Assembly (NCBI GenBank): GCA_040080215.1
Contig: JBEBIT010000008.1
Location: forward strand, 14,487 to 78,486
Reading direction: 5' to 3'
Origin: Steroidobacteraceae bacterium
GTDB taxonomy: Bacteria > Pseudomonadota > Gammaproteobacteria > Steroidobacterales > Steroidobacteraceae
DNA: 64,000 nucleotides
In this document: positions 1 through 32,183 of the stretch, in pieces
Layout: each line of letters begins with the position of its first letter
How positions within the stretch are numbered: the stretch's first letter is position 1
Position numbers and translations under genes: made by a program
Notes under the pieces: generated by a model
Seen by the model: only the letters and a program-made list of their open reading frames with translations
The model's database searches: none
Told to the model about the DNA's origin: nothing

Positions 1-1334
1 GTCTCGGCCTTGTAGTACATGGCCCACGACTCGGCGACCGGCACATAGAACAAGCCGTAGTCCGGGCTGTAGCTCGGCGGCGGCCAATTGGCGGCACCCT
101 GGTTCGCGCTCGAGACCAGCGCGCCCGAGATGTGGCTGTCCTTCTCCGGAATGCGCACCGGCTGGCCCTTTGCGTTGAGCTTCGGTTCCGCCCAGTTGGT
201 CGTTCTCGAGAACTTGGATGTGAGCAGGTGTTCACCGGTCGTGCGATCAACGACAAAGAAATAGCCGTTGCGGGCCGCCGTCATCGCTACCTTGCGCATG
301 CGGCCACCGATCTCGATATCTGCGAGCACCGGCGTCTGCGCGGAGTCCCAGTCATGCGTATCGTTCGGCGAAGTCTGGTAGTACCAGGCCATCTTGCCGG
401 TTTCGACGTTGATCGCGACGAGCGAGCAGGTGTACAGCGCATCCATGTTCCCGCGGACATCGGCGAAATAGGACGGCGACGGATTGCCGGTACCGATGAT
501 GTACAGGTTGGTTTCCGGGTCGTACGAACCGGGTACCCACGGATTGCCGCCGCCGTGGCGAGCAGCGTAGAGGTCTTTCCACGTCTCGAGCCCCGGATCG
601 CCGGCCTTCATCGGGACGGCATACCACTTCCACTGCAATGCGCCGGTTTCGGGATCGAACGACTGCAGGAAGCCCGGCGCATCGAGATCGTTGCCGGCGC
701 CCACCAGGACATGATTGCCGACCACGATGGGCGCGGGTGTCGAGAAATACTGTTCCTCGAAGCTCGCGATCTCGACGTGCCAGCGCTCCTTGCCTGTGGT
801 TGCATCGAGCGACACGAGGTAGTTGTCGGGCGTTTCCATGAATAGGTAGTTGCCCCACATGCCGAGGCCGCGGTTGCCGATATGGGTGCCTCCGCGCGTC
901 TTCCAGTGGTAATGCCACAAAATCTTGCCGCCCCGCGCATCGACCGCCCAGGCGTTGTCGGGCGTGGAGACATACAGGATGCCGTTCACCTGCAGGATGG
1001 ACGCACGGATGTTCGCGACCAGCGCCGCAAACAGCTTGCCCTCACCGACACCGCCGATGTTTACGGGATGGGGGCCGCGATCGCCAGCGCCTGCAACGAC
1101 GCGGGTGCTCCAGGCGAGCGAGAGCTGCGTGACGTTGGATTGGTTGATCTGGTCGAGCGAGCTGTAGCGTTTGCCGCTGTAGTCCCCGGAATAAGTCGGC
1201 CATGAGTCCGGAGCAGGCTTCAGGATGCTGGAGGGATGCAGTCCCTGAGCCGGTTCGGCAGCGAGGAGCGGGGAGCCGAGGGTTACGGCGAAACCCAGGA
1301 AGCATCCGAGCAGGCGATATGCGGTTGTCGTCAT
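1..1334 (-). CDS. PQQ-dependent quinoprotein dehydrogenase (beta-propeller); N-terminal ~444 aa only, the C-terminus runs off the left edge of the window
   Basis: Absent from the ORF track because there is no stop codon inside the window. My own minus-strand translation from the ATG at 1334-1332 gives MTTTAYRLLGCFLGFAVTLGSPLLAAEPAQG...PDSWPTYSGDYSGKRYSSLDQINQSNVTQLSLAWS...ILYVSTPDNAWAVDARGGKILWHY...LVSLDATTGKERWH...SFDPETGALQWKW. This is a signal peptide followed by the repeated W-motif blades typical of PQQ alcohol/sugar dehydrogenases. The start lies 1 nt after the stop of the upstream cytochrome c gene. Confidence 0.85.
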   Translation of the reverse strand, partial: MTTTAYRLLGCFLGFAVTLGSPLLAAEPAQGLHPSSILKPAPDSWPTYSGDYSGKRYSSLDQINQSNVTQLSLAWSTRVVAGAGDRGPHPVNIGGVGEGKLFAALVANIRASILQVNGILYVSTPDNAWAVDARGGKILWHYHWKTRGGTHIGNRGLGMWGNYLFMETPDNYLVSLDATTGKERWHVEIASFEEQYFSTPAPIVVGNHVLVGAGNDLDAPGFLQSFDPETGALQWKWYAVPMKAGDPGLETWKDLYAARHGGGNPWVPGSYDPETNLYIIGTGNPSPSYFADVRGNMDALYTCSLVAINVETGKMAWYYQTSPNDTHDWDSAQTPVLADIEIGGRMRKVAMTAARNGYFFVVDRTTGEHLLTSKFSRTTNWAEPKLNAKGQPVRIPEKDSHISGALVSSANQGAANWPPPSYSPDYGLFYVPVAESWAMYYKAE

Positions 1335-2660: not shown

Positions 2661-3404
2661 ATGATCGACTTCATGGCCATACACCGTCGCTTTCACGATT
2701 CGCGCCTCCGACGCGCTGCCGTTGCGTGGCTCGCGAGCTGCCTTTTGTCGCCGGTCGCGTCTTACGCGATGGCGCCCGCAGCAGAAGCCCAGGATCTTTC
2801 GGGCACCTGGGAAGTGCGCTACGACAGCCAGAGCGTGCCTGTGGCCAGGCTTACTGCAAAAGCCAAGGCGGCCAGCGCGGCCATGGCAGTGAAGGACATC
2901 GAGTCCCGTCGCTGGTGCCGCATCGGCGGCATGCCTTTCCTCATGCTCGAATCCCCGTTGCTGATTATCCGCCAGAGCCGTGCCGAGATCGTGGTCGCAC
3001 CGCAGGTGCAGGCCGTCGCCCGGCACCTCTATACCGATGGCGTCGCCCGTGCCGACCTCAAGGACTTCGATCCCGCCACGAATGGCTACACGGTGGCTCG
3101 CTGGGAAGGCAGCGTGCTGGTAGCGGAAACGAGCGGCTTCTCGGACCTCGGCATCGTCACGATTCCCGGCGGCGGCTATCGCACGGAGAACTCGCGGCTC
3201 GTGGAGCGCTTTCGGGTGCTCGACGGCGGCAAGCGCTTGTCGGTGACGTCCACGTGGACGGATCCGGGTGTCTTTGCGCAGCCCCATACCTATGAGGTCC
3301 GCTATTACCGGGCCGATGCCGGCGCGAGCGCATCCGCGCAGGCCTGCAATCCCTTCGAGGCCGGCCGCGAGGCATTCTTCGCGCCGGCGTTAGGTAAGAA
3401 GTAA
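2661..3404 (+). CDS. Secreted protein of unknown function, family A subtype I (copy A1)
   Basis: ORF 2661..3404. It has an N-terminal hydrophobic leader followed by DLSGTWE. Motifs shared with the paralog at 10679..11419(-) are SRRWC-x3-GMP, RWEGxxLVxET, PGGGYRT, LVERFRV and TWTDPGVFxQPHTY, plus a second Cys near the C-terminus. The start could instead be the ATG at 2673. Confidence 0.75.
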   Translation: MIDFMAIHRRFHDSRLRRAAVAWLASCLLSPVASYAMAPAAEAQDLSGTWEVRYDSQSVPVARLTAKAKAASAAMAVKDIESRRWCRIGGMPFLMLESPLLIIRQSRAEIVVAPQVQAVARHLYTDGVARADLKDFDPATNGYTVARWEGSVLVAETSGFSDLGIVTIPGGGYRTENSRLVERFRVLDGGKRLSVTSTWTDPGVFAQPHTYEVRYYRADAGASASAQACNPFEAGREAFFAPALGKK

Positions 3405-3416
3405 GGAGTCCACACG

Positions 3417-3809
3417 ATGAAGTTCCATTTCGCCGCGGCGCTTGCGCTTGGCTTTTCGGGTGCTGCGTTCGCGCATCATTCGTTCTCCATGTTCGACATG
3501 GACAAGGACGTGACGCTGGAAGGCAGCGTCATCGAATACCGCTTCGGGAATCCGCATTCCCACATCATCATCAAGGTTCCTGCCGGCAAGGCACAGGCAG
3601 AGTACGCCGGCAACTGGGATGTCGAGGGCGGCAGCGCGACCATCATGCGCCGGCAAGGCTGGTCGCGGGAAACCTTCAAGCCGGGTGACGGCATCAAGAT
3701 AGTCGGGCACCCGATGCGCGATGGCACCAAGGGCATTTCACTGTTCTACGCGATCATGCCGGACGGCACCCGCCTGTACCACGACATCGCCCGGCCGAAG
3801 GCCGACTGA
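3417..3809 (+). CDS. Small secreted protein, family B (copy B1); I recall similar proteins annotated as DUF6152, which needs checking
   Basis: ORF 3417..3809, with an AAGGAG Shine-Dalgarno upstream. The signal peptide MKFHFAAALALGFSGAAFA ends in an AxA site and is followed directly by HHSFSMFD. Conserved NPHSH and GHPMRDG motifs are present. The paralog is at 10224..10637(-). Confidence 0.8.
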   Translation: MKFHFAAALALGFSGAAFAHHSFSMFDMDKDVTLEGSVIEYRFGNPHSHIIIKVPAGKAQAEYAGNWDVEGGSATIMRRQGWSRETFKPGDGIKIVGHPMRDGTKGISLFYAIMPDGTRLYHDIARPKAD

Positions 3810-3823
3810 TCTGCGGAGCCAAC

Positions 3824-4597
3824 ATGACCACGCAGACTTCGATGTGGCTGTCCCTCGTGCTTGCGTTGCCGGTGCTGACGGCGACCCAGGCTGTCCATGC
3901 GGCGGCCGCGCCGAACGTCGATCTCAGCGGCTTCTGGGAGCGGCGCGACACGCAGGGCGGCGGCAGCTTCGGCGGCATGCTGGCCAGTTTGCCAAAGGCA
4001 GTGCTCGTGCCGGATTTCGTGCCGCCGCGTGCACCCTCCACGCAGGTTGATCCGCCGAGCACCGGCAAGCCGAATGCGGTCGGGGTGCCGTATATCGTCA
4101 CGACCGGCAACTGCAGCACGAGTGCCAGCCTCAACATTCCCTTCATGATGACCCACTCCACGCCGATCGACATCGTGCAGGGTGCGGACGAAATCCTGAT
4201 CGTTCCTGAAATGCCGGGCGCGCAGCGGATCTACATGGACGGCCGTGCGCATCCCGCGACGGGTCGCGTGGCGCCGACCGGCCTCGGACATTCCGTCGGC
4301 CGATGGGAAGGCAATGAACTCGTTGTCCATACGGTCGGCATGTCGGCGGGGGGAGGCATTCCGGGCGGGGGCTTTCGCACGCCGGAGACCGAGCTCACGC
4401 AGCGCTGGCGTCTCAAGGAAGGTGGCGCACAGCTCGAGGTCGAGTTCACGTGGGTCGATCCCAAGATCTATGCAAAGCCGCATACCTTCTCGCTGACGTA
4501 CTTCCGCATGCCTCAATCGACCTACGCGCTCGAGGAATGGTGCGATTCCGGCGACCCGTTGCAGCGGCAGTCGATCGTCCCCCCGAAGCAGGACTGA
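3824..4597 (+). CDS. Secreted protein of unknown function, family A subtype II (copy A2)
   Basis: ORF 3824..4597. It has a signal peptide followed by VDLSGFWE. Core motifs are RIYMDGRAHP, GHSVGRWEGNELVVHT, PGGGFRT, LTQRWRL and FTWVDPKIYAKPHTF, and the C-terminus is EEWCDSGDP...VPPKQD. The closest paralog is 11428..12264(-), which ends in PPKQE. Confidence 0.8.
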   Translation: MTTQTSMWLSLVLALPVLTATQAVHAAAAPNVDLSGFWERRDTQGGGSFGGMLASLPKAVLVPDFVPPRAPSTQVDPPSTGKPNAVGVPYIVTTGNCSTSASLNIPFMMTHSTPIDIVQGADEILIVPEMPGAQRIYMDGRAHPATGRVAPTGLGHSVGRWEGNELVVHTVGMSAGGGIPGGGFRTPETELTQRWRLKEGGAQLEVEFTWVDPKIYAKPHTFSLTYFRMPQSTYALEEWCDSGDPLQRQSIVPPKQD

Positions 4598-4608
4598 AGC
4601 CGACTCAC

Positions 4609-5556
4609 ATGCCCTTGCTCAATCGACGGGAATTCTCGCTGGGCCTGCTCGCGGCTGCTGCCGCGTGGCGCACCGCAGAGGCGGCCGGCAAGTTGAGCGC
4701 CACGATTGGTGGCGTGCGCGTCGGTGCGATCACCTACAGTTTCCGCGAGGTGCCGCGGACGCCGGGCAAGGACTTCCTCGAGACGGGCCTCGAGAGCTGC
4801 GTGGCATCCGGGCTGGGCGTTGCCGAGCTGTGGGCCACGATGGTCCAGCCCGACCAGCCGCTGCTGCCGCGGGGTGGCCAGTACGAGATCGACCCGGCGA
4901 ATGCCGCGATGGTGAAGGCCCGGGAAGACATTCGTCGTTGGCGCGTCGATACACCGGCATCGTACTGGCAGGGTGTCCGCCGCCGGTTCGACAAAGCCGG
5001 CATCGAGCTGATCGGCTACTCGCTGACGCTGGCCGATGACTTCACCGACGAGGAAATCGACAAAACGCTGCTCGCCGTGCGCGCCATGGGCATCCGCGAC
5101 ATCGGCACGAACCAGACGCGCGTTTCGATGGGCAAGCGCGTTGCGCCCTTCGCTGACAAGCACGGTGTCCGCCTGTGCTTCCACAACCATGCGAATGTCG
5201 ACCATCCGAATGAAGTCGCGACGATTGCCAGCATGGAAGAGGTCCTGGCCCAGTCGAAACACTACATGATCAACCTCGACGTCGGCCATTTCGTGGCCGC
5301 CAACCTCGATCCGGTGGCGTTCATCACCAAGTATCATGGCCGGATCAGCTACCTTCATCTCAAGGACCGCAAGCGCGACAATGGGGCCAACATGCCCTGG
5401 GGTCAGGGGGATACGCCGCTCAAGGAAGTGCTGCAGCTCGTGAAGAAGGAGCGCTATCCGATCCCGTGCCTCATCGAGTACGAATACAAAGGCGAGCAGT
5501 CGCCGCTCGTCGAGGTTGGCAAGTGTGTGGAATACATCCGTCAGGCGCTGGCCTGA
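4609..5556 (+). CDS. Xylose-isomerase-like TIM-barrel enzyme (sugar phosphate isomerase/epimerase family) with a twin-arginine signal
   Basis: Internal ATG at 4609 of ORF 4450..5556. The N-terminus MPLLNRREFSLGLLAAAAAWRTAEAAG is a Tat-type leader. The body carries FHNHANVDHPNE, NLDVGH, LHLKDR and LIEYEY, which are typical of this TIM-barrel family. Confidence 0.8.
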   Translation: MPLLNRREFSLGLLAAAAAWRTAEAAGKLSATIGGVRVGAITYSFREVPRTPGKDFLETGLESCVASGLGVAELWATMVQPDQPLLPRGGQYEIDPANAAMVKAREDIRRWRVDTPASYWQGVRRRFDKAGIELIGYSLTLADDFTDEEIDKTLLAVRAMGIRDIGTNQTRVSMGKRVAPFADKHGVRLCFHNHANVDHPNEVATIASMEEVLAQSKHYMINLDVGHFVAANLDPVAFITKYHGRISYLHLKDRKRDNGANMPWGQGDTPLKEVLQLVKKERYPIPCLIEYEYKGEQSPLVEVGKCVEYIRQALA

Positions 5557-5674: not shown

Positions 5675-7933
5675 ATGACCGAGAAAAGACCGGCTATCCA
5701 TCTTTCGCACCTCACCAGGCTGTGCCTGGGACTCGGTGCGCTTACCTTCACGTCGGCCTCGATGGCGCAAGCGCTCGAGGAAGTGGTCGTCACGGCGTTG
5801 CGCGTCGAGTCGAACGTGCAGAAGACCCCGATCGCGATGGAAGTGCTCGACAGCGACGCACTCAAGGACCAGGGCATCGTCAACGTCGCGACGCTCGCCG
5901 CAGTGAGCCCCAGCGTGAACATCACCGGCTTCGGTGGCGGCACCGTGCTCACGGTGCGCGGTGTCTCGAGCCGTGACACGACCGAGATCGGCGATCCGGC
6001 CGTGGTCGTGAGCGTCGACGGCTTCTACCAGGACCGTTCGTATGCGCTCGGCCTCTCCCAGTACGATCTCGCCCGCATGGAAATCCTGCGCGGACCTCAG
6101 GGCACGCTGTATGGCCGCAATGCGACCGGCGGTGCGATCAACATGTTCACCGTGCGACCGAGCAAGGAAGCCGGCGGCTACGCACAGGCGGACTTCGGCA
6201 ACTACGGTGCGATCAATGCAGAAGGTGCCATCAACGTGCCGTTCGGCGACCGCGTGCAGATGCGGGCGTCGTTTGGTTCGCTGTACCACGACGGGTATCG
6301 CGACGGCGGCTTCTTCGGCAAGATGGACGACGCCAACTCCCGCTCGGGGCGGTTGCAGTTTGCCTTCCAGCCCACCGAAAACCTTGATCTGTGGATCCTC
6401 GCGCAGCACACCAAGCAGACGTCGCTTGGCAACTCCGCGAATCTGAGAGGCTATAACGTCCTGCCGGCGACAACCTGCAACATGGTGGCCGCAGGTGCTG
6501 TACCGGCAAGAACCGGACCCTGCCAGCTGGTCAACCACAGCGCGATTCCCGAGCTCGGTGATCCGCAGGTGTATACGAAGTATTACATGTCGCAGCTCAA
6601 CCTGGATGACACGGTCGTCAAATGGAATGCGACCCTTCGCACGCCGATCGCGACCATCACGTACCTCGGTGGTTACGACCGTCTGGATTGGGATTCCTAC
6701 AATCCGGGAGCCACCTTCCCGAGTCCGCTCAACGTAGCCACCGTGCAAGCGAACTTCGCCACCGTCTACAACCAGACGGAAAAGCCGCGGACGACGAACC
6801 ACGAACTGCGGTTCCAGTCGGTCGACCCGGACGCAAGGTTGACGTGGCAGTTCGGTGCGTTCTACTTCAAGAACGACAACGACCTGGACTCTTTCAACCA
6901 GCGTCCGAACGGCACGGCGAACCCGACGCCGGTCATCCACTTCATCTACGACGTCGGCATCAAGTCGCTGGCCGAGATGGCCCAGGTGGCGTTCAAGGTG
7001 ACGGACGACTTCAAGGTCACGGCCGGCTTCCGGCACAACAAGGACGAGAAGTCGCGCCAGGGTTACTTTGGTGGGTTCCAGTACCTGCCGCCGACGCAGC
7101 CGCTGGTCATCAGCCCCGGAAGCGACATCAGCAAGAACACGTACCACCTCGGCCTCGACTGGCAGCTGAACCCGGACTCGCTCCTCTATGCGAAGTACGG
7201 CACAGGCTACAAGTCGGGCGGCTTCACGGACATCGCGCCGTACGGTCCCGAAGAGATCAAGACCTACGAAGTGGGTTCGAAGAACCGCTTCTTCAACAAC
7301 CAGGTTCAGTTGAACCTGTCGGCCTACCGCAGCGACTACAGCGGCCAGCAGGTGCAACAGATCGTCCAGGGTGGTGGTGGACTCAAGATCGAGAACGCGG
7401 GCGAGACCAAGCTGCAGGGTCTTGAAGCCGAACTCACCATGTCCTCGGACCTTGGACAGCTCGAGTTCAACCTGGCCTACCTCGATGCCGAGTTCACGAA
7501 GTTCGACCTTGCGTACGGTGCGCCCGTGTTCGACGTCACCCGCCAGGCATGGGCCAGTCTTGCGACGGTCAATGTCGACCTCTCGGGCAATCGTCCGCAG
7601 CAGGCCCCGGAGTGGACGATCGGTGCGGCCGTGCAGCGCTCGTTCAATGTCTGGGACGGCGAGCTGACGACGCGTGTGCAGACCAAGTACCAGACGGAGC
7701 AGTTCTACACGTTCTTCAACCGTCCGGACGACATGCAGAAGGCGTATGCCACCATCAACTTCCTCGCGACGTATGCGCCCACCGGCAGTCCGTGGCAGTT
7801 CCAGGCGTACGTGAACAACCTGAGCAACGAAACGGTGTTCTCGAACGCGGGTCCCAACGATCGCTCGTTTGTGTACTCCTACACGTATCAGGCGCCGCGC
7901 ACGTATGGAGGCCGCGTCAGCTACAAGTGGTAA
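5675..7933 (+). CDS. TonB-dependent outer-membrane receptor
   Basis: ORF 5675..7933, 752 aa. It has a signal peptide ending in MAQA and a plug domain (EEVVVTALRVESNVQKTPIAMEVL...LRGPQGTLYGRNATGGAIN). A long beta-barrel follows, with the C-terminal motif RTYGGRVSYKW. Confidence 0.95.
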   Translation: MTEKRPAIHLSHLTRLCLGLGALTFTSASMAQALEEVVVTALRVESNVQKTPIAMEVLDSDALKDQGIVNVATLAAVSPSVNITGFGGGTVLTVRGVSSRDTTEIGDPAVVVSVDGFYQDRSYALGLSQYDLARMEILRGPQGTLYGRNATGGAINMFTVRPSKEAGGYAQADFGNYGAINAEGAINVPFGDRVQMRASFGSLYHDGYRDGGFFGKMDDANSRSGRLQFAFQPTENLDLWILAQHTKQTSLGNSANLRGYNVLPATTCNMVAAGAVPARTGPCQLVNHSAIPELGDPQVYTKYYMSQLNLDDTVVKWNATLRTPIATITYLGGYDRLDWDSYNPGATFPSPLNVATVQANFATVYNQTEKPRTTNHELRFQSVDPDARLTWQFGAFYFKNDNDLDSFNQRPNGTANPTPVIHFIYDVGIKSLAEMAQVAFKVTDDFKVTAGFRHNKDEKSRQGYFGGFQYLPPTQPLVISPGSDISKNTYHLGLDWQLNPDSLLYAKYGTGYKSGGFTDIAPYGPEEIKTYEVGSKNRFFNNQVQLNLSAYRSDYSGQQVQQIVQGGGGLKIENAGETKLQGLEAELTMSSDLGQLEFNLAYLDAEFTKFDLAYGAPVFDVTRQAWASLATVNVDLSGNRPQQAPEWTIGAAVQRSFNVWDGELTTRVQTKYQTEQFYTFFNRPDDMQKAYATINFLATYAPTGSPWQFQAYVNNLSNETVFSNAGPNDRSFVYSYTYQAPRTYGGRVSYKW

Positions 7934-7963
7934 GCCTGGAATAGGGCGCTGTCAGAGACTCCA

Positions 7964-7998
7964 GCCGCGACGTGCTCAAGGCGTCGCGGCTTTTTTTT
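7964..7998 (+). terminator. Rho-independent terminator after the TonB receptor gene
   Basis: A 9-bp GC stem (GCCGCGACG at 7964-7972 pairing with CGTCGCGGC at 7982-7990) is followed by T8 at 7991-7998, about 30 nt after the stop codon. Confidence 0.85.
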
Positions 7999-8039
7999 GC
8001 TCGATGACGGCAGCGATGAACCCATTTGCAAGGTGCAGG

Positions 8040-10202
8040 ATGAAGTACCGGATGCCCGTCGCCGTGTTGGTGGCAACACTCTGTTCCCCGCTGGGTGGGT
8101 GCGATCGCGATGGGGCGTCTGCAGGCCAGGCCGACGCCGATTGGCCCGCGTACGGTGGGCATGAAACCGGCGACCGCTATTCGGGCCTCACGCAGATCAC
8201 GCCTGCCAACGTCACCAGCCTCAAGGTCGCGTGGCGCGTCGATCACGCAGGGACCGGCGAATCCCAGACGCAGCCGCTGGTCGTGGGCGGCACCGTGTAC
8301 ACGTATACGCCGGACCACAAGGTGCTGGCCCTCGATGCCGCTACAGGCGAACGTCGCTGGCAGTTCGATTCCGGACTCGTCGGCACTGGCCCTGCGCGCG
8401 GCCTGACGTGGTGGACGGACGGCAAGACGAGCCGCGTGTTTGCAAGCGTAATGAATTACCTCTTTGCGCTCGATCCTGCCACCGGCACGCCGCTGCAGGA
8501 CTTCGGCGTTCAAGGCGCGGTCGACTTGCGGCAGGGTCTGCGGGGCGACCCCCACGATCACTTCGTCGCGCTGACTTCGCCCGGCATTGTCTACAAGGAC
8601 CTCCTCATCGTCGGCTTCCGCACCAGCGAGACGATGCCTGCGCCGCCCGGCGATATCCGTGCGTACGATGTCCGCACCGGCGAGCTGCGCTGGACTTTCC
8701 ATACCCTGCCTGAGGCCAACGAGCCCGGCGCAGGAAGCTGGCCGGGCGACGCTCGTGCAACATCCGGAGCAGCCAACAACTGGGTAGGCATGGTGATCGA
8801 TGCGGGACGGGGCATCGTCTACGTGCCCACCGGATCCGCGGTGCCCGACTTCATCGGCATCGATCGCAAAGGCGACAACCTGTATGCGAACTCGCTGCTG
8901 GCGCTCGATGCCGCGACGGGCAAGCGCCTGTGGCATTTCCAGCTGGTGCACCACGATATCTGGGACCGCGATCCGCCGTCGCCCCCGGTGCTACTCACGA
9001 TCCGGCGCAATGGCAAGCAGATCGATGCCGTCGCACAGACGACGAAGCAGGGTTTCGTGTTCGTGTTCGATCGCGTGAGCGGCGAGCCGCTGTTTCCGGT
9101 CGAGGAACGCGCCTACCCGGCCAGCTCGCTCCCCGGTGAAGTGGCTTCACCTACGCAGCCCTTTCCGGTGCTGCCCGAACCCATCGCGCGGCAGCGGCTG
9201 ACAGAAGACATGCTGACGACAAGGACGCCTGAGGCCCATGCTGCGGCGCTGGATCGGTTCCGGACAATGCGCAGCGACGGGCAGTTTGTTCCGCTCGCGC
9301 TTGGCAAGCCCACCGTGGTCTTCCCGGGCTTCGACGGGGGAGCCGAGTGGGGCGGCGCCGCTGTGGATCCGCGGTCGGGCGTGCTGTACGTCAATGCGAA
9401 CGATGTGGCGTGGACCGGCGAGCTCGCACCTAACGTACCCGTCACGGGCGTCGCCGCGTCGCTGTACCAGGTACAGTGCGCCGCGTGTCATGGCGTCGAG
9501 CGCAAGGGCTCGCCACCCGCGTTTCCGTCACTCGTCGATGTGGGGCGGCGTCTCCCGGCTGCCGACGTTGTGACGGTCATCCGTGACGGGCGAGGCCGGA
9601 TGCCGCCGTTCGGCGCGCTGGGCGCGGAATCCATTGCCCTGCTCCAGGATTATCTGGTCACCGGCAACGATCGGCCTCTGCCGAGCCCCGTGGCATCCGC
9701 AGGCCCGGTGACTGCAGCACAGGCCGGCAGGGAGCCGATGACGAGGACGCTGCGCAACCCCAGCTCGCCGGGCAAGTACCGCTTCACGGGGTACCAGAAG
9801 TTCCTGGATGCAGACGGCTATCCCGCGATCGTACCCCCGTGGGGAACGCTCAACGCCATCGACCTCAACACCGGAAAGTATTTATGGAAGGTGCCGCTCG
9901 GCGAATATCCTGAGCTGGTGGCGCAGGGCATGAAGGACACGGGGTCGGAAAACTACGGTGGCCCGGTCGTTACCGAGGGCGGGCTGGTGTTCATCGGCGC
10001 GACGGTGTTCGACCACAAGCTGCGCGCATTCGACAGCAGGACCGGGAAGGTGTTGTGGCAGTACGAGCTGCCCTATGCGGGGACCGCGACGCCGGCGGTC
10101 TACAGCGTGGCAGGCAAGCAGTATGTCGTCATTTCCACCAGCAACGCGCGCAACCGCAATGCGCCGCAGGGGAGCGCGCTGATCGCCTTTTCACTTCCGT
10201 GA
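8040..10202 (+). CDS. PQQ-dependent beta-propeller dehydrogenase (glucose/quinate dehydrogenase-like) with an internally inserted c-type cytochrome domain; probable lipoprotein
   Basis: The ATG at 8040 lies downstream of the terminator and is preceded by AGGTGCAGG. The leader MKYRMPVAVLVATLCSPLGGCD contains the lipobox LGGC. The propeller motifs are DWPAYGGHETGDRYSGLTQITPANVTSLKVAWR, ALDAATGERRWQF and ALDAATGKRLWHF. The CAACHG haem site (YQVQCAACHGVERKG...GRMPPFG) sits between propeller segments. Confidence 0.9.
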   Translation: MKYRMPVAVLVATLCSPLGGCDRDGASAGQADADWPAYGGHETGDRYSGLTQITPANVTSLKVAWRVDHAGTGESQTQPLVVGGTVYTYTPDHKVLALDAATGERRWQFDSGLVGTGPARGLTWWTDGKTSRVFASVMNYLFALDPATGTPLQDFGVQGAVDLRQGLRGDPHDHFVALTSPGIVYKDLLIVGFRTSETMPAPPGDIRAYDVRTGELRWTFHTLPEANEPGAGSWPGDARATSGAANNWVGMVIDAGRGIVYVPTGSAVPDFIGIDRKGDNLYANSLLALDAATGKRLWHFQLVHHDIWDRDPPSPPVLLTIRRNGKQIDAVAQTTKQGFVFVFDRVSGEPLFPVEERAYPASSLPGEVASPTQPFPVLPEPIARQRLTEDMLTTRTPEAHAAALDRFRTMRSDGQFVPLALGKPTVVFPGFDGGAEWGGAAVDPRSGVLYVNANDVAWTGELAPNVPVTGVAASLYQVQCAACHGVERKGSPPAFPSLVDVGRRLPAADVVTVIRDGRGRMPPFGALGAESIALLQDYLVTGNDRPLPSPVASAGPVTAAQAGREPMTRTLRNPSSPGKYRFTGYQKFLDADGYPAIVPPWGTLNAIDLNTGKYLWKVPLGEYPELVAQGMKDTGSENYGGPVVTEGGLVFIGATVFDHKLRAFDSRTGKVLWQYELPYAGTATPAVYSVAGKQYVVISTSNARNRNAPQGSALIAFSLP

Positions 10203-10223: not shown

Positions 10224-10637
10224 TTACTCGGCCTTGGGACGAGCGATGTCCGTATACAGCCGCGTGCCGTCCGGCTTGTTGATGTAGAACAGGGCGCCGC
10301 CCTTGTTGCCGTCGCGCAGCGGATGGATCACCGCGTCGATGGGCTCACCGGCCTTCAGGGTCGACTTGGTCCAGCCCTGGCGGCCCATGATGACCGTGCC
10401 GCCGCCGCACTCGAAGTCCCACAGGCCGACCAGCGCCGGGTCGATGCCGGGCGCTGCGTCAACCTTGACGGTCACGTGCACGTGCGGGTTCATCCACTTG
10501 TATTCGACTACCGTGCCCTTCACGGCGACATTCTTGTCCATCTCGAACATGGCAAACGAATGATGGGCGAGGGCCGGCATCGCGATCGCGCCAGCCAGTG
10601 CCAGGGAAGCGAGCCATCGGGAAAGGTTGGGTCTCAT
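10224..10637 (-). CDS. Small secreted protein, family B (copy B2); paralog of 3417..3809
   Basis: Internal ATG at 10637-10635 of ORF 10224..10988(-). The sequence MRPNLSRWLASLALAGAIAMPALA is followed directly by HHSFAMFEMDKNVAVKGTVVEYKWMNPHVHVTVKV and, later, IHPLRDGNKG. Confidence 0.8.
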   Translation of the reverse strand: MRPNLSRWLASLALAGAIAMPALAHHSFAMFEMDKNVAVKGTVVEYKWMNPHVHVTVKVDAAPGIDPALVGLWDFECGGGTVIMGRQGWTKSTLKAGEPIDAVIHPLRDGNKGGALFYINKPDGTRLYTDIARPKAE

Positions 10638-10678: not shown

Positions 10679-11419
10679 CTATTTCGCGGACGGCGGGTTG
10701 GCAAAGAACTCGGCGCGCTCCTTGTCGAGCGGATCGCAGTCGAGCGTTGTTTGTACTTCGTAGAACTTCGGCGCCCGCGTATAGCGGTACGCGTAGGTGT
10801 GCGGCGTCTTGAAGACCTTGGGGTCCTCCCAGGTGAACGTGACGATCAGCGCATTGCCGTTGTTCGCGAGGCGATAACGTTCGGTGAGCTTGCTGTCCGT
10901 CGTGCGGAACCCGCCTCCGGGCAGCAGCGTCAGGCCCTTGTCGCCGTCGATGCCGACGGTCGTGACGACGAACGTATTGCCTTCCCAATGCCCGACGGAG
11001 TCGCCCGTCGACGTGAAGTCATAGTCGTCGAGGAGCATGTTGTCCTTGCGGTCGAGGTAGATGTGCCTCGGCGTCGCGCGCGTCTCGAAGTTGACCAGGA
11101 CCTCGTGGGCGGACTGGCGGATGTCGATCGGGCGCGGTGAATCCATGGCCATCGGCATGCCGATGAAGTAGCACCACCTGCGGGAGTTCGCATCCTTGGC
11201 CCGGTGTTCGGCAATGACGGCAGGCGTGACGGACGGCTGCAGGTTCGCTTGCGGAATATTGCGGCCGTCGTAGGGGAGTTCCCAGAAGCCGCTGATGTTA
11301 TGCGGATCGAACGACGCAGCCGGTGCCGCAGCCTGGGCAGGCAACACCATCGAGAGCGCCGTCGCCACGGTGGCGGCACGCAGCGAGGCGCGTACGAGAT
11401 TCTTGAGTGCGAATGCCAT
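10679..11419 (-). CDS. Secreted protein of unknown function, family A subtype I (copy A3)
   Basis: The ATG at 11419-11417 (MAFALKNLVRASLRAATVATALSMVLPAQAAAP) is preceded by AGGAG. Motifs present are NISGFWE, SRRWCYFIGMP, GHWEGNTFVVTT, PGGGFRT, LTERYRL, FTWEDPKVFKTPHTY and LDCDP. Confidence 0.8.
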   Translation of the reverse strand: MAFALKNLVRASLRAATVATALSMVLPAQAAAPAASFDPHNISGFWELPYDGRNIPQANLQPSVTPAVIAEHRAKDANSRRWCYFIGMPMAMDSPRPIDIRQSAHEVLVNFETRATPRHIYLDRKDNMLLDDYDFTSTGDSVGHWEGNTFVVTTVGIDGDKGLTLLPGGGFRTTDSKLTERYRLANNGNALIVTFTWEDPKVFKTPHTYAYRYTRAPKFYEVQTTLDCDPLDKERAEFFANPPSAK

Positions 11420-11427
11420 GGACGTCG

Positions 11428-12264
11428 TTACTCCTGCTTGGGCGGAGCCACGCCCTGTGACTGCTTGGGATCCGCGGCGTCGCAGTACCACTCGAACGCG
11501 AGCTGCCTTGGTAGTCCGCGTTCCGCGAGGATCTCGAACGTATGCGGCTTCGTGTAGATCTTCGGGTCCGTGAAGGTGTAGCGCATCGTGAGGCGATTGC
11601 CATCGGGGGACAGGCTGTAGCGCTCGACCAGGACCGTCTCCGGCGTCTTGTAGCCGCCGGCCGGGACACCGCCTGGCGTGAGTCCGACGGTTTCGAACAC
11701 CAGCGCACCGCCTTCATAGCGGCCTACCGAATGGCCGGTCGCGGTCGGCACAAAGCGCTTGAGGTCGGGATGCGGACGGCCGTCCATGTAGATGTTCCGG
11801 CCAAGGCCCGGATTCTCACGGACGATCACGACCTCGTCGCGGTCCTGCACGATGTGGAACGCGGCCGAGTTCGGTTCAATTCCGCCAGGGAAGCCGCACG
11901 TGCCGGCAGTAACCACGTAGGCCTCGCCGTTCTGGTACTTCTTGTTCGGATCCCATGCACCCGTCCGCGGGCCTGCCTTCTTCTCGCGTTCCCGCTGTTC
12001 CGCGTAGGCCGGAGTCAGGGAGGCTTGCGGAAAACCCGCGGCGAGGTTGTCGAAACTGCCGGACCCGGTCGCATCGATGCGAACCCAGGCACCAGTCAGG
12101 TCCGGAATGCCACCGGCCGGCTGTGCCGCGCTTGCGGGTGCGACAGTACCGAGCGCGCCCGCGGCGACCGTGATCGGGATCGCCAGCCACCGTGAGAAGC
12201 GGCGGACAGCAGGCGGACTGCGTCTTGCAATCGTCGCGTTGGTTAGCGAAGCGTGGGCTGGCAT
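11428..12264 (-). CDS. Secreted protein of unknown function, family A subtype II (copy A4)
   Basis: ORF 11428..12303(-). I prefer the ATG at 12264 because GGAG lies about 8 nt upstream. Motifs present are IPDLTGAW, RNIYMDGRPHP, GHSVGRYEGGALVFET, AGGYKTP, LVERYSL, YTFTDPKIYTKPHTF and WYCDAADP...APPKQE. Confidence 0.8.
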   Translation of the reverse strand: MPAHASLTNATIARRSPPAVRRFSRWLAIPITVAAGALGTVAPASAAQPAGGIPDLTGAWVRIDATGSGSFDNLAAGFPQASLTPAYAEQREREKKAGPRTGAWDPNKKYQNGEAYVVTAGTCGFPGGIEPNSAAFHIVQDRDEVVIVRENPGLGRNIYMDGRPHPDLKRFVPTATGHSVGRYEGGALVFETVGLTPGGVPAGGYKTPETVLVERYSLSPDGNRLTMRYTFTDPKIYTKPHTFEILAERGLPRQLAFEWYCDAADPKQSQGVAPPKQE

Positions 12265-12309
12265 TGTGGGTCTCCGGAGGGCTCCATCCAGCGGCCTCGG
12301 CACTGAAAT

Positions 12310-12408: not shown

Positions 12409-13461
12409 TCAGTCGGCCCGGCCGGTCGAGGTACGAACGATCAGCGAATGCGGCAGGACGATGGTGCGCACCGCATCGCCCGACAGGTCGGCCTCGTCCT
12501 GCAGCATCTCGATCATGAGCTGCATGGCCATTTCGCCGATGGCGGCCTGTGGCTGGTGGATCGTGGTCAGCGGCGGGTCGCAGTAGCCGGAAAAGCGGAT
12601 GTCGTCAAAGCCGACGATCGAGATATCGCGGGGTATCCTCAGTCGGGTTTCCTTGATCGCACGAGCAGCGCCGATCGCCATTTCGTCGTTGGAGCAGAAC
12701 ACGCCGGTCGGCTTCATTGGCTTGCCGAGCAGCGTTTTCATCGCGGCATAGCCAGAGGGCGCCGAGAAGTCGCCGTTGACGATGAGTTCCTCGTCGACCT
12801 TGATCTTTGCCTGGGCCATGCATTGCCTGAAGCCGGCAAGCCGGTCCTTGCTCAAGGGGTTGTGCATCGGGCCCGTGATCTTGGCGATGCGCGTGTGCCC
12901 GAGGCGGATCAGGTGCTCCGTTGCCATGGCCGCCGCCGCGACGTTGTCGATCCTCACGTTCGGCAGCTTGATGTGGTCGAAATATTCGCAAGCGGTAACG
13001 ACCGGGATGGATGAGCGCTCGTCGTCCGTCGCATTCTTGAGGATCGAGGGCAGCAGGGCGCCGAGCAGGATCAGGCCATCCGCTTCCTTGCGTGCCAGCA
13101 TGGAGGCATAGCTGTCCAGCCTTTCCTGGTTGCCCTGGCTTTCCCCAAGCAGCACCTTGTAACCGCTCAGGTGGGCGAGGTTCTCGATGCCACGGATGAC
13201 GTTCGAGAAGAACGGGTTATGGATGGAAGGCACGACGACGACGATGCTGTCGCTCTTCTGGCGGCGCAGGCGGCTCGCGAGCGCATTGGGGCGGTAGCCG
13301 GACTTGCGGATTGCGTTCTCGACCCGCTCGCGGGTGGCGGCACGGACGGTGTCCGGGGAGGCCAGGGTCCTGGAGACGGTTGCGACCGAAACCTTGGCAA
13401 CGCGGGCCACGTCCCGGATCGTGGGCGTCTGGCTCGTCTTCGTGCGGGTTCGGCGTGTCAT
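12409..13461 (-). CDS. LacI-family transcriptional regulator
   Basis: ORF 12409..13461(-), 350 aa. It has an N-terminal HTH (TIRDVARVAKVSVATVSRTLASPDTVRAATRERVENAIRKSGYRPNALA) followed by a periplasmic-binding-protein-like sugar-binding fold. Confidence 0.95.
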   Translation of the reverse strand: MTRRTRTKTSQTPTIRDVARVAKVSVATVSRTLASPDTVRAATRERVENAIRKSGYRPNALASRLRRQKSDSIVVVVPSIHNPFFSNVIRGIENLAHLSGYKVLLGESQGNQERLDSYASMLARKEADGLILLGALLPSILKNATDDERSSIPVVTACEYFDHIKLPNVRIDNVAAAAMATEHLIRLGHTRIAKITGPMHNPLSKDRLAGFRQCMAQAKIKVDEELIVNGDFSAPSGYAAMKTLLGKPMKPTGVFCSNDEMAIGAARAIKETRLRIPRDISIVGFDDIRFSGYCDPPLTTIHQPQAAIGEMAMQLMIEMLQDEADLSGDAVRTIVLPHSLIVRTSTGRAD

Positions 13462-28391: not shown

Positions 28392-28587
28392 ATTGTGCCA
28401 CGCCCTGCGCGGAACCGGAACGGCACTGTGCAGGTCGAGGCAAACTCTTGAGCAAACCTGAGCAAGCCCCGGCAGACCGCCTGTGGTGCCATGCGTCGGC
28501 TGGCGGAAAGGCACGCTGGGCACCGCCGGCAGACCGGGGGCCGGGTCAAATGAAGAGCCTGAGAGCGTAGAGGTCCCAAAGGAAACC

Positions 28588-29865
28588 ATGGCAAGCGAAA
28601 CCGGCAAGCCCGCGGGCGGGAGCGTCCCGGCGGAATCCAGCACGGGCGTACGAACCGGCCTCTGGACCACCTTTGCGTCGGTGGTCGGACTGACATTTGG
28701 CCCGAGCGCCATCGCCGTGCTCGGGTTCGGGGTGTTCGTCCGCCCGCTCGAAGCCGAGTTCGGCTGGACGCGGACCCAGGTCTCGCTGGCTTCCGTGATC
28801 ATCTCGTGGATGATCGTGCTGGTGTCGCCGCTGCAGGGCATCCTGATCGACCGCTTCGGCGCGCGCCCGGTGGTGTTGTGCTCGATCCCGGCCTTCGCGG
28901 CCGGCATTGCGGCGCTGTATGTCCTGCCCAACAACCTTGCCGTGTTCTATCTCATGTGGGTGATCATTCCCGTGCTGGCCGTCGGGCTGTGGCCGCTCGC
29001 GTACCTCAAGGCGGTGAGCACATGGTTCGATCGACGCCTCGGACTCGCGATCGGTATCGCCAACGCAGGGATCGGCATCGGCAGTGCGCTGGTGCCGCTG
29101 ATCGCGGGTGCCCTGATTGCCACCTACGGCTGGCGCTCGGGCTATCTCGGCCTCGCCGTCATTGCACTCGTCGTCACCTGGCCCGTCTCGTGGCTGTTCC
29201 TGCGTGAGCAGCACGCGGTCGGCGATGCCGGCAAGCCAGGGGCGACCGCCGCACCGGCACTGTTCGGGATCGCGTTCAGGGAGGCGGCCCGCACGCGCAC
29301 GTTCTGGCTGCTCGGCGGGGCGTATTTCCTGCTGGGCGTCATCAACACCGCGCTGATCACGCAGCAGATTCCGATGCTGATCGACTCCGGGCTCACCCCG
29401 CAAGCGGCCGCGGTCGTGCAGTCCATCTTTGGCATCGCGATGATGGTCGGAAGGCTCGGTACCGGGTACGTCATCGATCGCGTGTTCGCCCCGTGGGTGA
29501 TGATCGTCGTGTCCCTGGGAGCCGCCATCGCCTGTGCGCTGTACGGTACCGGCGTGACCGGAGGCATGGTGTTCGTGTCCGCTTGCCTGATCGGACTCGT
29601 CGTCGGCGCGGAGTTCGATGTGCTCGCTTTCATGATCAAGCGTTATTTCGGCATCGTTGCGTACGGCAAGTTGTACGGCGTGATCTTTGCGGTGTTCCAG
29701 TTCGGCGCAGGCATCGGTGCCGCAGCGTTGCCGATCAGCCGCGGCCAGTTCGGCAGCTACACGCCCGGTCTCTACGCTTTCGGCATCGTGCTGGTCCTCG
29801 CCGCAGTCGTTTTCAGTCGGCTGGGCGCGTATACGTTCCAGCCGTCGCCGCCTGCGGCAAGGTGA
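28588..29865 (+). CDS. MFS transporter
   Basis: Internal ATG at 28588. The protein has about 12 hydrophobic segments, with the loop motif GILIDRFGARP between TM2 and TM3. Confidence 0.9.
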   Translation: MASETGKPAGGSVPAESSTGVRTGLWTTFASVVGLTFGPSAIAVLGFGVFVRPLEAEFGWTRTQVSLASVIISWMIVLVSPLQGILIDRFGARPVVLCSIPAFAAGIAALYVLPNNLAVFYLMWVIIPVLAVGLWPLAYLKAVSTWFDRRLGLAIGIANAGIGIGSALVPLIAGALIATYGWRSGYLGLAVIALVVTWPVSWLFLREQHAVGDAGKPGATAAPALFGIAFREAARTRTFWLLGGAYFLLGVINTALITQQIPMLIDSGLTPQAAAVVQSIFGIAMMVGRLGTGYVIDRVFAPWVMIVVSLGAAIACALYGTGVTGGMVFVSACLIGLVVGAEFDVLAFMIKRYFGIVAYGKLYGVIFAVFQFGAGIGAAALPISRGQFGSYTPGLYAFGIVLVLAAVVFSRLGAYTFQPSPPAAR

Positions 29866-29875
29866 AGGGTCCGGC

Positions 29876-30400
29876 ATGAAAGCCCGCATGGCACTGCCTG
29901 ACGAACCGGGACTGACGGAAGACCAACGGCGCGTACGCGCAGCCATCCTCGCAACCCGGCGCAATCTCGACGGTCCTTTTCCTGCGTGGTTGCACAGCCC
30001 CGAGCTTGCCGACCTCGCGCAAGCGCTTGGGGCATTCTGCCGGTACCGAACGGGGCTGCCCTTGCTCGAGTCCGAGCTGCTCATCCTGTGCGTGGCAAGT
30101 CACTGCCGCTGTGTCGGTGAGCAGCAGATCCACGAGCCCATCGCGCGCTCGGCAGGCCTTGGCGATTCCGTGATCGCCGCGCTGCGCCGGGGCGACCAGG
30201 CTGAACTGCCGACCGTCCGATTGCAGGTGCTGCATGACCTCGCGCGGCAGCTGCTGACGACGCATCGGATCGACGATGCCTTGTTCGGGGCGGCACAGAC
30301 GGAATTCGGAGACCGGCTGCTGGTCGAAATCGTCGGCATCATCGGGTACTACACGCTGGCGGCACAGACGCTGAACGCGTTCGACATGGTGAAGGAATGA
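29876..30400 (+). CDS. Carboxymuconolactone decarboxylase (CMD/AhpD-like) family protein
   Basis: Internal ATG at 29876, 174 aa. The length and helical pattern (LTEDQRRVRAAI...LILCVASHCRCVGEQQIHEPIA...GYYTLAAQTLNAF) are reminiscent of CMD-family proteins. Confidence 0.6.
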   Translation: MKARMALPDEPGLTEDQRRVRAAILATRRNLDGPFPAWLHSPELADLAQALGAFCRYRTGLPLLESELLILCVASHCRCVGEQQIHEPIARSAGLGDSVIAALRRGDQAELPTVRLQVLHDLARQLLTTHRIDDALFGAAQTEFGDRLLVEIVGIIGYYTLAAQTLNAFDMVKE

Positions 30401-31524
30401 GTATTGCGGCGAGCCGAGTGCTCGTGGTGGGCGGGGGCATCGGCGGGATGTCGAGTGCCATTGTCTTGCGGCGTCTTGGCATCGCAGTTGACGTCGTCGA
30501 ACTCGATCGTGAGTGGCGCGTCTACGGCGCTGGTATCACGATCACCGGGCCGACGCTCCGTGCCTTCAAGGCGCTCGGCATCTATGATTCCGTGATGGCC
30601 GATGCGTACGTGGGTCACGGCATCCAGATCTGCTCCGTGGCGGGCGAGCCGATTCGCGTGGTCGCAACGCCCACTCCAGTGGGCAGCGATGTCGCAGGCA
30701 GTGGCGGCATCATGCGGCCGGTGCTGCACCGGATATTGTCGGCCTCGACGCTCGAATCTGGAGCACAGGTACGCCTCGGGCTCGGCATCGAAGCGCTCGA
30801 CCAGCATGACGATCGCGTCACGGCGACTTTCACCGACGGGAGGCAGGCAACCTACGACGCAGTGATCGGTGCCGATGGTCTCTTCTCGAGGACCCGGGAG
30901 CTGATCTTTCCCGATGCGCCGCGGCCTGAGTACGTCGGCCAGTTCATCTGGCGGGTCACCGTGCCGCGGGATCCCGCCATCGAGCGGCGGCATTTCTTCC
31001 TTGGAGGTCCCGTCAAGGTGGGCCTCAATCCCGTTTCGCGCGACGAGATGTACATGTTCGTGCTCGAAGGCGCGCCGGCCAAGGTCAAGATCGAAGACGA
31101 CGTACTGGTGCCGAGACTCAAGGCGCTGCTCGCACCCTACGGAGGCGCTGTCGGCCGGGTACGCGACAGCCTTGATGAGCGTTTCCAGATCATCGCCCGC
31201 CCGCTCGAGGCGTTCCTGCTTCCGAGTCCGTGGTATTCGGGCCGCGTAATGCTGGTCGGGGATGCCGCTCATCCGACGACCCCACAGCTCGCGTCCGGCG
31301 CCGGCATGGCGGTGGAGGATGCACTCGTCCTCGGGGCAGAGATGGAAGGGGCGGCCTCGGTACCGGAGGCGTTCGCTGCCATGATGGCTCGCCGCCATGA
31401 CCGGTGCCGCATGGTGGTCGAGAATTCCCTCGAGATCGGCCGCCGCGAGCGGACCGGCGCGCCGCCGGAGTCGCAGACGGAAATACTCGAGCGTTCGCTC
31501 GCGATCCTCGCGCAGCCGATTTGA
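30397..31524 (+). CDS. FAD-dependent aromatic monooxygenase (salicylate hydroxylase/UbiH-like)
   Basis: ORF 30397..31524. Motifs present are the GxGxxG element VLVVGGGIGGMSSA, GADGLFSRTR and GRVMLVGDAAHPTTPQLASGAGMAVEDA. There is a 4-nt overlap with the upstream gene. Confidence 0.85.
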   Translation: MSIAASRVLVVGGGIGGMSSAIVLRRLGIAVDVVELDREWRVYGAGITITGPTLRAFKALGIYDSVMADAYVGHGIQICSVAGEPIRVVATPTPVGSDVAGSGGIMRPVLHRILSASTLESGAQVRLGLGIEALDQHDDRVTATFTDGRQATYDAVIGADGLFSRTRELIFPDAPRPEYVGQFIWRVTVPRDPAIERRHFFLGGPVKVGLNPVSRDEMYMFVLEGAPAKVKIEDDVLVPRLKALLAPYGGAVGRVRDSLDERFQIIARPLEAFLLPSPWYSGRVMLVGDAAHPTTPQLASGAGMAVEDALVLGAEMEGAASVPEAFAAMMARRHDRCRMVVENSLEIGRRERTGAPPESQTEILERSLAILAQPI

Positions 31525-31873: not shown

Positions 31874-32183
31874 TCCAGTCGGGCAATTGGATGGTGGTTT
31901 GCTGGCCATAAAGGCCAATTGCAGTATTGAGCCAATTCCTGCGCAGCCACGGACATGAATCCTGGGAGTGATCAGGCAGTCTGTGCCCCGCGCTCACTGG
32001 GCTCGCCTGCCGCGCCTTGGCCGGGCACGGCGTCTGTCTCGCCTGATTGAGTGGAAAAAGTGGTGGCCGTTGGTCCTGCATTCCGCATCCGGTCATGGCA
32101 CGATCCGATTTCCCGGTTGTCAGTGGGGCTGTGGAGCCTGTGCGGCTGGGCGGCCGATTTGTCTTTTCGATGGAGTTGCCACC

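Follow-up and report, generated by a model that had tools for sequence, protein, structure and literature searches.

An N-terminal His-His motif on a predicted OB-type barrel marks DUF6152 proteins as candidate periplasmic metal carriers

The window analysed here is a 64,000-nucleotide stretch of contig JBEBIT010000008.1 from a Steroidobacteraceae bacterium (GenBank assembly GCA_040080215.1), which encodes two small secreted proteins, B1 (3417-3809, plus strand) and B2 (10224-10637, minus strand). Both are ordinary members of the known, uncharacterised Pfam family DUF6152 (PF19649). What is new is the near-absolute, family-wide His-His-Ser N-terminus on a predicted oligonucleotide/oligosaccharide-binding (OB) barrel, together with a conserved operon of DUF6152 with CopD-like membrane proteins and calycin-like proteins. 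DUF6152 is put forward as a strong candidate for a novel type of metal-binding protein in the periplasm, rather than an enzyme resembling the lytic polysaccharide monooxygenases (LPMOs); it plausibly has a metal site and would more likely be a carrier than an enzyme. The reading preferred here, tentatively and at a little under even odds, sees B1 and B2 as periplasmic carriers without catalytic function that would bind metal through His-His with His28 and Glu51 (mature numbering), and a pair of DUF6644 membrane proteins as the family-wide partner.

B1 is encoded by an open reading frame (ORF) of 130 aa, whose ATG is preceded at a distance of 7 nt by the ribosome-binding site AAGGAG, and is 100% identical to a protein of a Steroidobacteraceae metagenome-assembled genome. 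B2 spans 137 aa from its ATG and shares 54% identity with B1. Against a curated cut-off of 27 bits, B1 and B2 scored 97.8 bits (E=4e-28) and 88.9 bits (E=2.4e-25) with PF19649, while NCBIfam held no model matching either protein. The B1 leader, MKFHFAAALALGFSGAAFA (3417-3473), is followed by HHSFSMFD, and the predicted mature chain begins at His20 of the precursor (3474); the His1-His2-Ser3 codons (CAT CAT TCG, 3474-3482) come straight after AFA, with NPHSH and GHPMRDG further on. The B2 leader, MRPNLSRWLASLALAGAIAMPALA (10566-10637), is likewise followed by HHSFAMFE, with His-His-Ser at 10557-10565 and with NPHVH and IHPLRDG in the corresponding places. In both leaders a basic n-region precedes a hydrophobic core and Ala occupies -3 and -1, and neither contains a lipobox Cys or a twin-arginine motif as read from the sequence. 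By the -3/-1 rule and family conservation, B1 and B2 appear to be Sec-exported and cut by signal peptidase I after AFA and ALA, respectively. The preliminary description of this DNA had pointed to an AxA site followed by HHSF in both copies, which is borne out, and had proposed His as the first mature residue. A mature His-His N-terminus is indeed very probable, with Ala at -1 in 266/282 relatives and His1 in 281/282.

Those 282 relatives are the sequences with an ungapped core among 350 pooled ones, corresponding to ~118 effective sequences at 80% clustering. The family itself is large, as a profile search of 1.84 billion cluster representatives retrieved 11,563 members at E<=0.001 and 3,628 at E<=1e-10, each being a cluster at the 50% identity level. 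The members range over Acidobacteriota, Alpha-, Beta- and Gammaproteobacteria and other phyla. In all 120 closest database relatives, a leader ending in Ala is followed by HH(S/A/G)F, and the DUF6152 model was matched by all 57 aligned relatives. Across the conservation set, -3 was Ala or Val in 217/282, His2 was kept in 280/282 and Ser3 in 269/282. Within the NPHSH segment of B1 (mature N26-H30, 3549-3563), Asn26, Pro27 and His28 were found in 269/282, 282/282 and 281/282, respectively. Two acidic residues, Glu51 (GAG, 3624-3626) and Asp72, are also nearly invariant (278/282 and 267/282) and were absent from the earlier list of conserved positions. That list had named further invariant histidines. 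His28 fits this description; His30 has a weighted frequency of 0.33, being confined to the B1/B2 subfamily and replaced by Trp, Phe or Tyr elsewhere, and His79 reaches only 0.71, with Asn at 0.13. The remainder of the GHPMRDG segment (mature 78-84, 3705-3725) is better kept, with weighted frequencies of 0.98 for Pro80, 0.82 for Asp83 and 0.92 for Gly84.

Departures from His-His among 150 representatives were mostly fragments or frameshifted gene calls. There are few genuine exceptions: P0125 has HN, P0140 has HQ and P0156 has none. The 220-aa protein P0154 carries two tandem DUF6152 domains. The HHS arm is present on the leader-proximal domain and missing from the internal one, which retains the (N/D)PH motif; this suggests that the His-His segment is tied to a free N-terminus. 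The almost total conservation of His-His, along with that of His28 and Glu51, makes it likely that DUF6152 has a functional site at its free N-terminus. It could be argued instead that the two histidines have no special role, either since cleavage falls elsewhere or since the motif merely aids signal peptidase recognition or folding. An alternative small-residue site does lie three residues upstream in B1, between SGA and the next Ala. Against this stand the -3/-1 pattern in front of HH, which is kept family-wide while upstream positions vary, and the 99% conservation over the effective sequences, which exceeds that of most core residues. Signal peptidase, moreover, needs no His at +1 or +2, where the residue is uncommon; this explanation is rated the least probable of all. 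The rarity of His after the cleavage site is also the premise of a recent search for such proteins (PMC12537917).

The fold of mature B1 was predicted with AlphaFold2 from 57 sequences, giving a mean predicted local distance difference test score (pLDDT) of 89.6 and a predicted template modelling (TM) score of 0.81. An N-terminal arm (residues 1-12, mean pLDDT 79 over the first ten) leads into strands 1 (13-23), 2 (30-35), 3 (46-51), 4 (73-78) and 5 (91-94), followed by two short C-terminal strands. The NPH loop joins strands 1 and 2, Glu51 sits at the end of strand 3, a helix spans residues 55-60, and the GHPxRDG segment runs from the last part of strand 4 into the 4-5 loop. This order of secondary structure follows that expected of an OB-fold, which is defined by a five-stranded barrel with pairing 1-2-3-5-4-1 and a helix between strands 3 and 4. 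The best fold matches in the Protein Data Bank (PDB) were all OB domains, namely the anticodon-binding domains of Lys-, Asn- and Asp-tRNA synthetases, replication protein A (RPA), Teb1, a single-stranded DNA-binding protein (SSB) and Mop/ModE. These matches were all weak (E 0.03-0.2, TM ~0.4), hence B1 has no close solved relative. PDB sequence searches with B1 and with the B profile returned only insignificant S1 and cold-shock matches. B is therefore described as a predicted OB-type barrel of ~111 residues with a short N-terminal arm, which differs from the immunoglobulin (Ig)-like sandwich of LPMOs, CopC, YcnI and the N-terminal-His proteins reported recently.

Covariation analysis, by mutual information with average product correction, agrees with the model. 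The top pairs (30-49, 32-49, 34-47, 23-32, 16-75, 15-78 and 81-87) are in line with the OB strand pairings 1-2, 2-3 and 1-4. By the pairs 30-49 and 32-49, Glu51 would adjoin the beginning of strand 2 and so come close to His28 and His30. The arm with His1 and His2 is not placed by covariation, because its residues hardly vary; after removal of truncated sequences, arm pairs rank below 55. Early signs of packing between the arm and the 79-89 loop disappeared with the same filtering, and a mean-field direct coupling analysis was discarded as dominated by gap artefacts.

An N-terminal His-His dipeptide is by general chemistry already a strong chelator of Cu(II) and Ni(II). It was demonstrated by Franco Cairo et al. 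in 2025, in a search for proteins with His right after the leader, that metal chelation by a His which leader cleavage has exposed does not depend on the fold, as all four families tested were metal-binding (PMC12537917). Ni is bound by DUF4198, whose gene neighbours include TonB receptors, and Ni, Co and Cu by DUF6702, whereas Ang-1 and Ang-2, both fused to HupE/UreJ permeases, are Cu binders. None of the four had significant oxidase activity, and their His1 conservation ranged over 65-100% (PMC12537917). The retention of His at +1 in 281/282 DUF6152 sequences agrees with the conservation by which this class of N-terminal-His metal chelates is recognised, and DUF6152 itself is absent from that paper and its supplements. 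Established pairs of an N-terminal-His Cu(II) protein with a CopD-type membrane protein are CopC/YobA with CopD/YebZ and YcnI with YcnJ (PMC8689200, PMC12362106). Literature searches gave no relevant paper on DUF6152, with no function or structure described.

According to the preferred reading, the free alpha-amine and the imidazole of His1 would form a divalent transition-metal site, which His2 and, most probably, His28 and Glu51 of the barrel would complete. Cu(II) is the first guess because of the analogy with CopC and YcnI and a weak CopD signal in the partner protein. Ni(II) and Zn(II) are also possible, and Ni or Zn is equally in line with the published N-terminal-His precedents. B would capture or hold the metal in the periplasm and, in most genomes, pass it to or receive it from the four-helix, CopD/DUF2214-like DUF6644 pair encoded directly downstream, a logic that would parallel CopC-CopD, YcnI-YcnJ and the "anglerase"-permease fusions. 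Two calycin-like proteins of a further family, termed family A, and often a TonB-dependent receptor may belong to the same module. In the window, B may supply the metal needs of a periplasmic sugar-oxidation module, since a TIM-barrel enzyme, a TonB receptor, two quinoproteins and c-type cytochromes adjoin it.

The gene neighbourhood was surveyed over 78 DUF6152 loci, one genome per species, by profile searches of six-frame translations and by protein searches. Most of the loci are from Acidobacteriota (Bryobacterales, Vicinamibacterales and Terriglobia), and the others come from Steroidobacteraceae, Alphaproteobacteria, Binataceae, Eremiobacterota and Actinomycetota. In 49/78 loci the start of a DUF6644 gene is no more than 400 bp downstream of DUF6152, on the same strand; DUF6644 occurs as a pair in 46/78 and is found anywhere in the locus in 57/78. 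A family-A gene lies <=300 bp from DUF6152 in 37/78 and anywhere in the locus in 56/78. DUF6644 ranks as the core partner of DUF6152, with family A next; quinoprotein (24/78) and di-haem cytochrome c (29/78) genes are lineage-specific additions. Also recurrent are a TIM-barrel homologue (43/78), a TonB receptor of acidobacterial type (25/78, besides the window), a ROK kinase (14/78), a major facilitator superfamily (MFS) transporter (9/78) and a thioredoxin-like protein (9/78). Plain two-gene operons of DUF6152 (Ala followed by HHGW) and DUF6644, with no quinoprotein or cytochrome genes nearby, are seen in Paracoccus versutus, Cupriavidus campinensis and Azospirillum brasilense. Novosphingobium humi and Novosphingobium sp. 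PP1Y combine DUF6152 with a family-A homologue and two DUF6644 genes, and in Croceibacterium atlanticum two DUF6152 genes accompany a family-A homologue and a TonB receptor, so the pairing with family A persists in distant Sphingomonadales.

As a separate observation, the thioredoxin-like protein is a two-domain thioredoxin/AhpC-TSA-like protein encoded directly 5' of an A-A-B arrangement, at 7765-9018 of locus L033 and in 8 more Acidobacteriota loci. Thiol-disulfide oxidoreductases accompany some copper-trafficking systems.

DUF6644 proteins are ~160 aa long with four predicted helices and one invariant His in helix 1. Arg50, Gly83, Lys103, Trp149, Gly156 and Arg157 are invariant as well, and the C-terminus carries GRxxAY. 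Tandem paralogue pairs stand directly after DUF6152 in loci L003 (6367-7354), L081 (8391-8864), L082 (6349-6861) and L084 (6335-6841) and in ~45 others. A Pfam scan of 31 such proteins matched DUF6644 in 27/31, DUF2214 in 10/31 (best E=2.6e-4) and CopD in 7/31 (best E=3.1e-5, over profile positions 2-104 of 105). Precomputed CopD or DUF2214 matches were present on 6/120 DUF6644 homologues, the NCBIfam scan gave scattered noise only, and nothing significant was returned by PDB searches with the DUF6644 and A profiles. Literature searches on DUF6644 and DUF2214 produced no relevant paper. "CopD-like" is accordingly used for DUF6644 as a lead, not as family membership. The preliminary description had offered a CopC-type carrier as one option, and the weakly CopD-like character of the usual partner supports this indirectly; B has no CopC sequence match and another predicted fold.

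The same membrane proteins allow another, improbable interpretation, in which B and DUF6644 form a membrane electron-transfer unit with b-type haem held between the helix-1 histidines of DUF6644, and B is a small periplasmic redox or haem-handling partner linking cytochrome c to the membrane. Haem held in such a manner is reported for HemJ, a related protein. The single invariant His in helix 1, the usual presence of two paralogues, weak DUF6644 matches to UPF0093/HemJ as well as to CopD, the frequent cytochrome c neighbours and the thioredoxin-like protein upstream in 9 loci are all compatible with this idea. The HemJ similarity, however, is at noise level (2/31 proteins at E ~0.1, and one NCBIfam match at 0.01), B has no haem-binding motif, the window has no DUF6644, and His-His at an N-terminus is not known as a way of ligating haem.

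Family A comprises unannotated secreted proteins of ~250 aa, always present as two divergent paralogues, with an invariant Cys pair, the invariant motifs DGRxHP and GHSxG, and several conserved His residues. None of the four members in the window, A1-A4, had a Pfam or NCBIfam match. The AlphaFold2 model of A2 (pLDDT 81) was closest in the PDB to fatty-acid and retinol binding proteins and then to avidins (E ~1e-3, TM ~0.5 on target), and family A is thus predicted to be a calycin-type ligand-binding barrel. A fifth protein in the window, of 357 aa (31968-33041, plus strand) and without Pfam or NCBIfam match, contains a family-A-like segment (profile match 32541-32810). It adjoins a flavin adenine dinucleotide (FAD)-dependent monooxygenase (30397-31524) and an MFS transporter (28483-29865), and a weaker A1-like match lies at 34662-34904.

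These partners bear on the main rival to the metal carrier, an unlikely though serious one: that B binds no metal and belongs to a periplasmic small-molecule module with the A proteins and a Tat-exported TIM-barrel enzyme, where His-His would act as an acid/base or bind an organic ligand taken up via the TonB receptor, either a sugar derivative or a cofactor like pyrroloquinoline quinone (PQQ). The frequency of A genes near DUF6152 and in its locus, which extends to distant Sphingomonadales, points in this direction, as do the predicted ligand-binding barrel of A and the TIM-barrel gene directly flanking B both in loci of the window type and in Bryobacterales. OB folds often bind oligosaccharides or other non-metal ligands, and cofactor scavenging is conceivable with a quinoprotein of an "empty quinoprotein" group nearby. 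On the other hand, a His kept strictly at +1, rather than anywhere in a pocket, is a signature of alpha-amine chelation, and the internal domain of the tandem protein P0154 has no arm. The core partner, too, is a small membrane protein pair and not A or the TIM barrel, and the conserved polar set (three His with Glu/Asp) is typical of metal sites.

Several observations weigh against a metal carrier with DUF6644 as its partner. No DUF6644 gene was found in the window, so a hand-over would not be local here, and no genes or regulators of Cu, Ni or Zn homeostasis were seen in it. Beside the DUF6152 operons of cultured strains no metal-homeostasis genes were found either, the neighbours being mostly sugar or other catabolic genes. 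The DUF6644 matches to CopD, DUF2214 and HemJ all fall under the curated thresholds (for example 17.8 bits vs 32.1 for CopD with the first protein scanned), and a profile comparison of DUF6644 with E. coli YebZ by hhalign was not significant (E=0.52). Family A, moreover, resembles a binder of small organic molecules, which fits poorly to a metal pathway unless the metal travels as a chelate.

In the window the DUF6152 genes lie in two cassettes, A1-B1-A2 (2661-4597, plus strand) and A4-A3-B2 (12303-10224, minus strand); the window and its closest relative, L001, represent a minority locus type without DUF6644 nearby. A1 (2661-3404, plus strand, 247 aa), a paralogue of A2-A4, is directly 5' of B1, and A2 (3824-4597, plus strand, 257 aa) directly 3' of it. 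Upstream of B2 on the minus strand are the A1-type A3 (10679-11491, ORF limits, with the true start probably internal), which is directly adjacent, and then the A2-type A4 (11428-12303). Directly after A2 follows a xylose-isomerase-like TIM-barrel enzyme of 315 aa (4609-5556, plus strand, Pfam AP_endonuc_2), whose leader is of the twin-arginine translocation (Tat) type, MPLLNRREFSLGLL. This is a metal-dependent type of enzyme that is normally cytoplasmic, and it appears here to be exported folded to the periplasm. The next gene encodes a TonB-dependent outer-membrane receptor (5675-7933, plus strand, Pfam Plug and TonB_dep_Rec_b-barrel), followed by a PQQ-type beta-propeller dehydrogenase with an inserted cytochrome c domain (7869-10202, ORF limits, plus strand; PQQ E=1e-187, Cytochrome_CBB3). 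A LacI-family regulator (12409-13461, minus strand, Pfam LacI and Peripla_BP_3) is upstream of A4-A3-B2, and beyond it come more TIM-barrel proteins and a GFO/IDH/MocA oxidoreductase. Carbohydrate-binding modules and glycoside hydrolases were not found in the window locus.

Divergent from A1 is a di-haem cytochrome c gene (1336-2424, ORF limits, minus strand) with two Cytochrom_C stretches, for which the gene call on the identical contig L086 corresponds to 1336-2169. Downstream of it, and cut by the window edge, is a second quinoprotein-type dehydrogenase (1-1334, minus strand) that matches TIGR04528, "acido-empty-quinoprotein group A", with 581 bits on the partial protein. The cytochrome c and TIGR04528 pair recurs in acidobacterial DUF6152 loci. 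The name of the model suggests Acidobacteria, and the present genome is from Steroidobacteraceae (Gammaproteobacteria). In Bryobacterales the TIM-barrel gene directly flanks DUF6152 as in loci of the window type, and the DUF6152, cytochrome c and quinoprotein genes form one long co-oriented cluster with sugar-metabolism genes.

The preliminary description had likened the N-terminal His of B to that of LPMOs and had named, as a hypothesis, the PQQ-cytochrome fusion and the di-haem cytochrome as possible electron donors. On this view B would be a redox-active histidine-brace Cu protein, LPMO-like or another oxidase, acting on a TonB-imported glycan. This is considered highly unlikely. In its favour are the conserved N-terminal His, the recurrence of cytochrome c and quinoprotein genes in 24-29/78 loci, the single Bryobacterales cluster, and the cytochrome c-"empty quinoprotein" pair and PQQ-cytochrome fusion that flank the B cassettes of the window. 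The link to these genes is weakened by their absence from the two-gene operons and, generally, from the vicinity of most DUF6152 members. Quinohaemoproteins normally reduce soluble cytochromes and need no extra acceptor. The LPMO analogy itself is not borne out, as the model is an OB-type barrel and not the flat-faced Ig-like fold, and as neither an LPMO nor a CopC or YcnI Pfam match was obtained at E<=1 for the 57 relatives. Four other N-terminal-His proteins of new fold were tested without meaningful oxidase or peroxidase activity (PMC12537917). A bolder variant deserves equally little credence, namely that DUF6152 is a new histidine-brace Cu centre on an OB barrel, redox-active alone or with DUF6644, which would exchange electrons with the "empty quinoprotein" or cytochrome c and either oxidise a TonB-imported substrate or feed the membrane. 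If such a redox-active centre did exist, it would represent a widespread, unrecognised periplasmic copper redox system.

If instead metal binding as preferred here is true, DUF6152 would be the fifth fold, and the first OB barrel, among the N-terminal-His chelators generated by signal peptidase. DUF6152-DUF6644 would constitute a widespread periplasm-to-membrane metal relay parallel to CopC-CopD, and a functional anchor would be gained for three unannotated families that are common among soil bacteria (DUF6152, DUF6644 and family A). Cultured hosts for genetics are available in Paracoccus versutus, Cupriavidus campinensis, Azospirillum brasilense and Novosphingobium humi.

Among known systems, LPMOs share with B the secretion and a His as mature residue 1, and the fungal enzymes can be reduced by a PQQ dehydrogenase with a cytochrome domain. 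Their histidine brace places the amine and imidazole of His1 and a second His around Cu in a T-shape; in B, His1 is predicted from the sequence. They differ in their flat-faced Ig-like/fibronectin-III-like sandwich, which has no sequence relationship to B, and in context, since the core of the DUF6152 neighbourhood is a membrane protein pair. No LPMO was among the 50 best PDB fold matches of the B1 model, and B1, B2 and the 57 relatives had no Pfam match beyond DUF6152 at E<=1. CusF, a periplasmic Cu(I)/Ag(I) chaperone that hands its metal to a membrane transport system, resembles the carrier proposed here as a small periplasmic OB-type barrel carrying metal to a membrane system. It binds through an internal His/Met/Met set and a Trp and not through its N-terminus, in which it differs from B; CusF was not among the 50 best fold matches of the B1 model, and no sequence similarity to it was detected.

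The Cu(II) site of YcnI is described as a mono-histidine brace. Like B in the preferred reading, YcnI is an extracytoplasmic Cu(II) protein paired with a CopD-type membrane protein, and it differs in its fold and in being membrane-tethered. In Bacillus subtilis it works with the CopC-CopD-type importer YcnJ, with which it was demonstrated to exchange Cu(II) (PMC12362106). The B1 relative P0117 bears the JGI label "uncharacterized protein YcnI"; a search for DUF1775, the YcnI family, gave no match at E<=1 among the 57 DUF6152 members, P0117 included. The CopC/YobA-CopD/YebZ pair, which serves copper binding and delivery without catalysis (PMC8689200), is similar in having a small secreted beta-protein with a mature His1 whose gene stands beside that of a small multi-helix membrane protein, and DUF6644 shows recurrent weak matches to the CopD model. 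CopC is an Ig/cupredoxin-like sandwich with a single His, whereas B is a predicted OB barrel with His-His, and CopD is one protein of ~290 aa in contrast to the paired, four-helix DUF6644 of ~160 aa. No copper regulon context was seen for DUF6152, B had no Pfam match to CopC (PF04234), and a profile comparison with E. coli YobA aligned the leader end only (E=0.099).

The four families of the N-terminal-His search, DUF4198, DUF6702, Ang-1 and Ang-2, share with DUF6152 a conserved His1, which leader cleavage exposes in them and is predicted to expose in DUF6152, and have new folds unrelated to LPMOs. Their metal affinities range from nM to pM, with no notable oxidase activity (PMC12537917). They are beta-sandwiches, while B is predicted to be an OB barrel. 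The permease is attached in Ang-1 and Ang-2, whereas the permease-like partner of DUF6152 is a separate gene of a different family. Finally, unlike these "signal-strapped" families, DUF6152 conserves His2 as strictly as His1.

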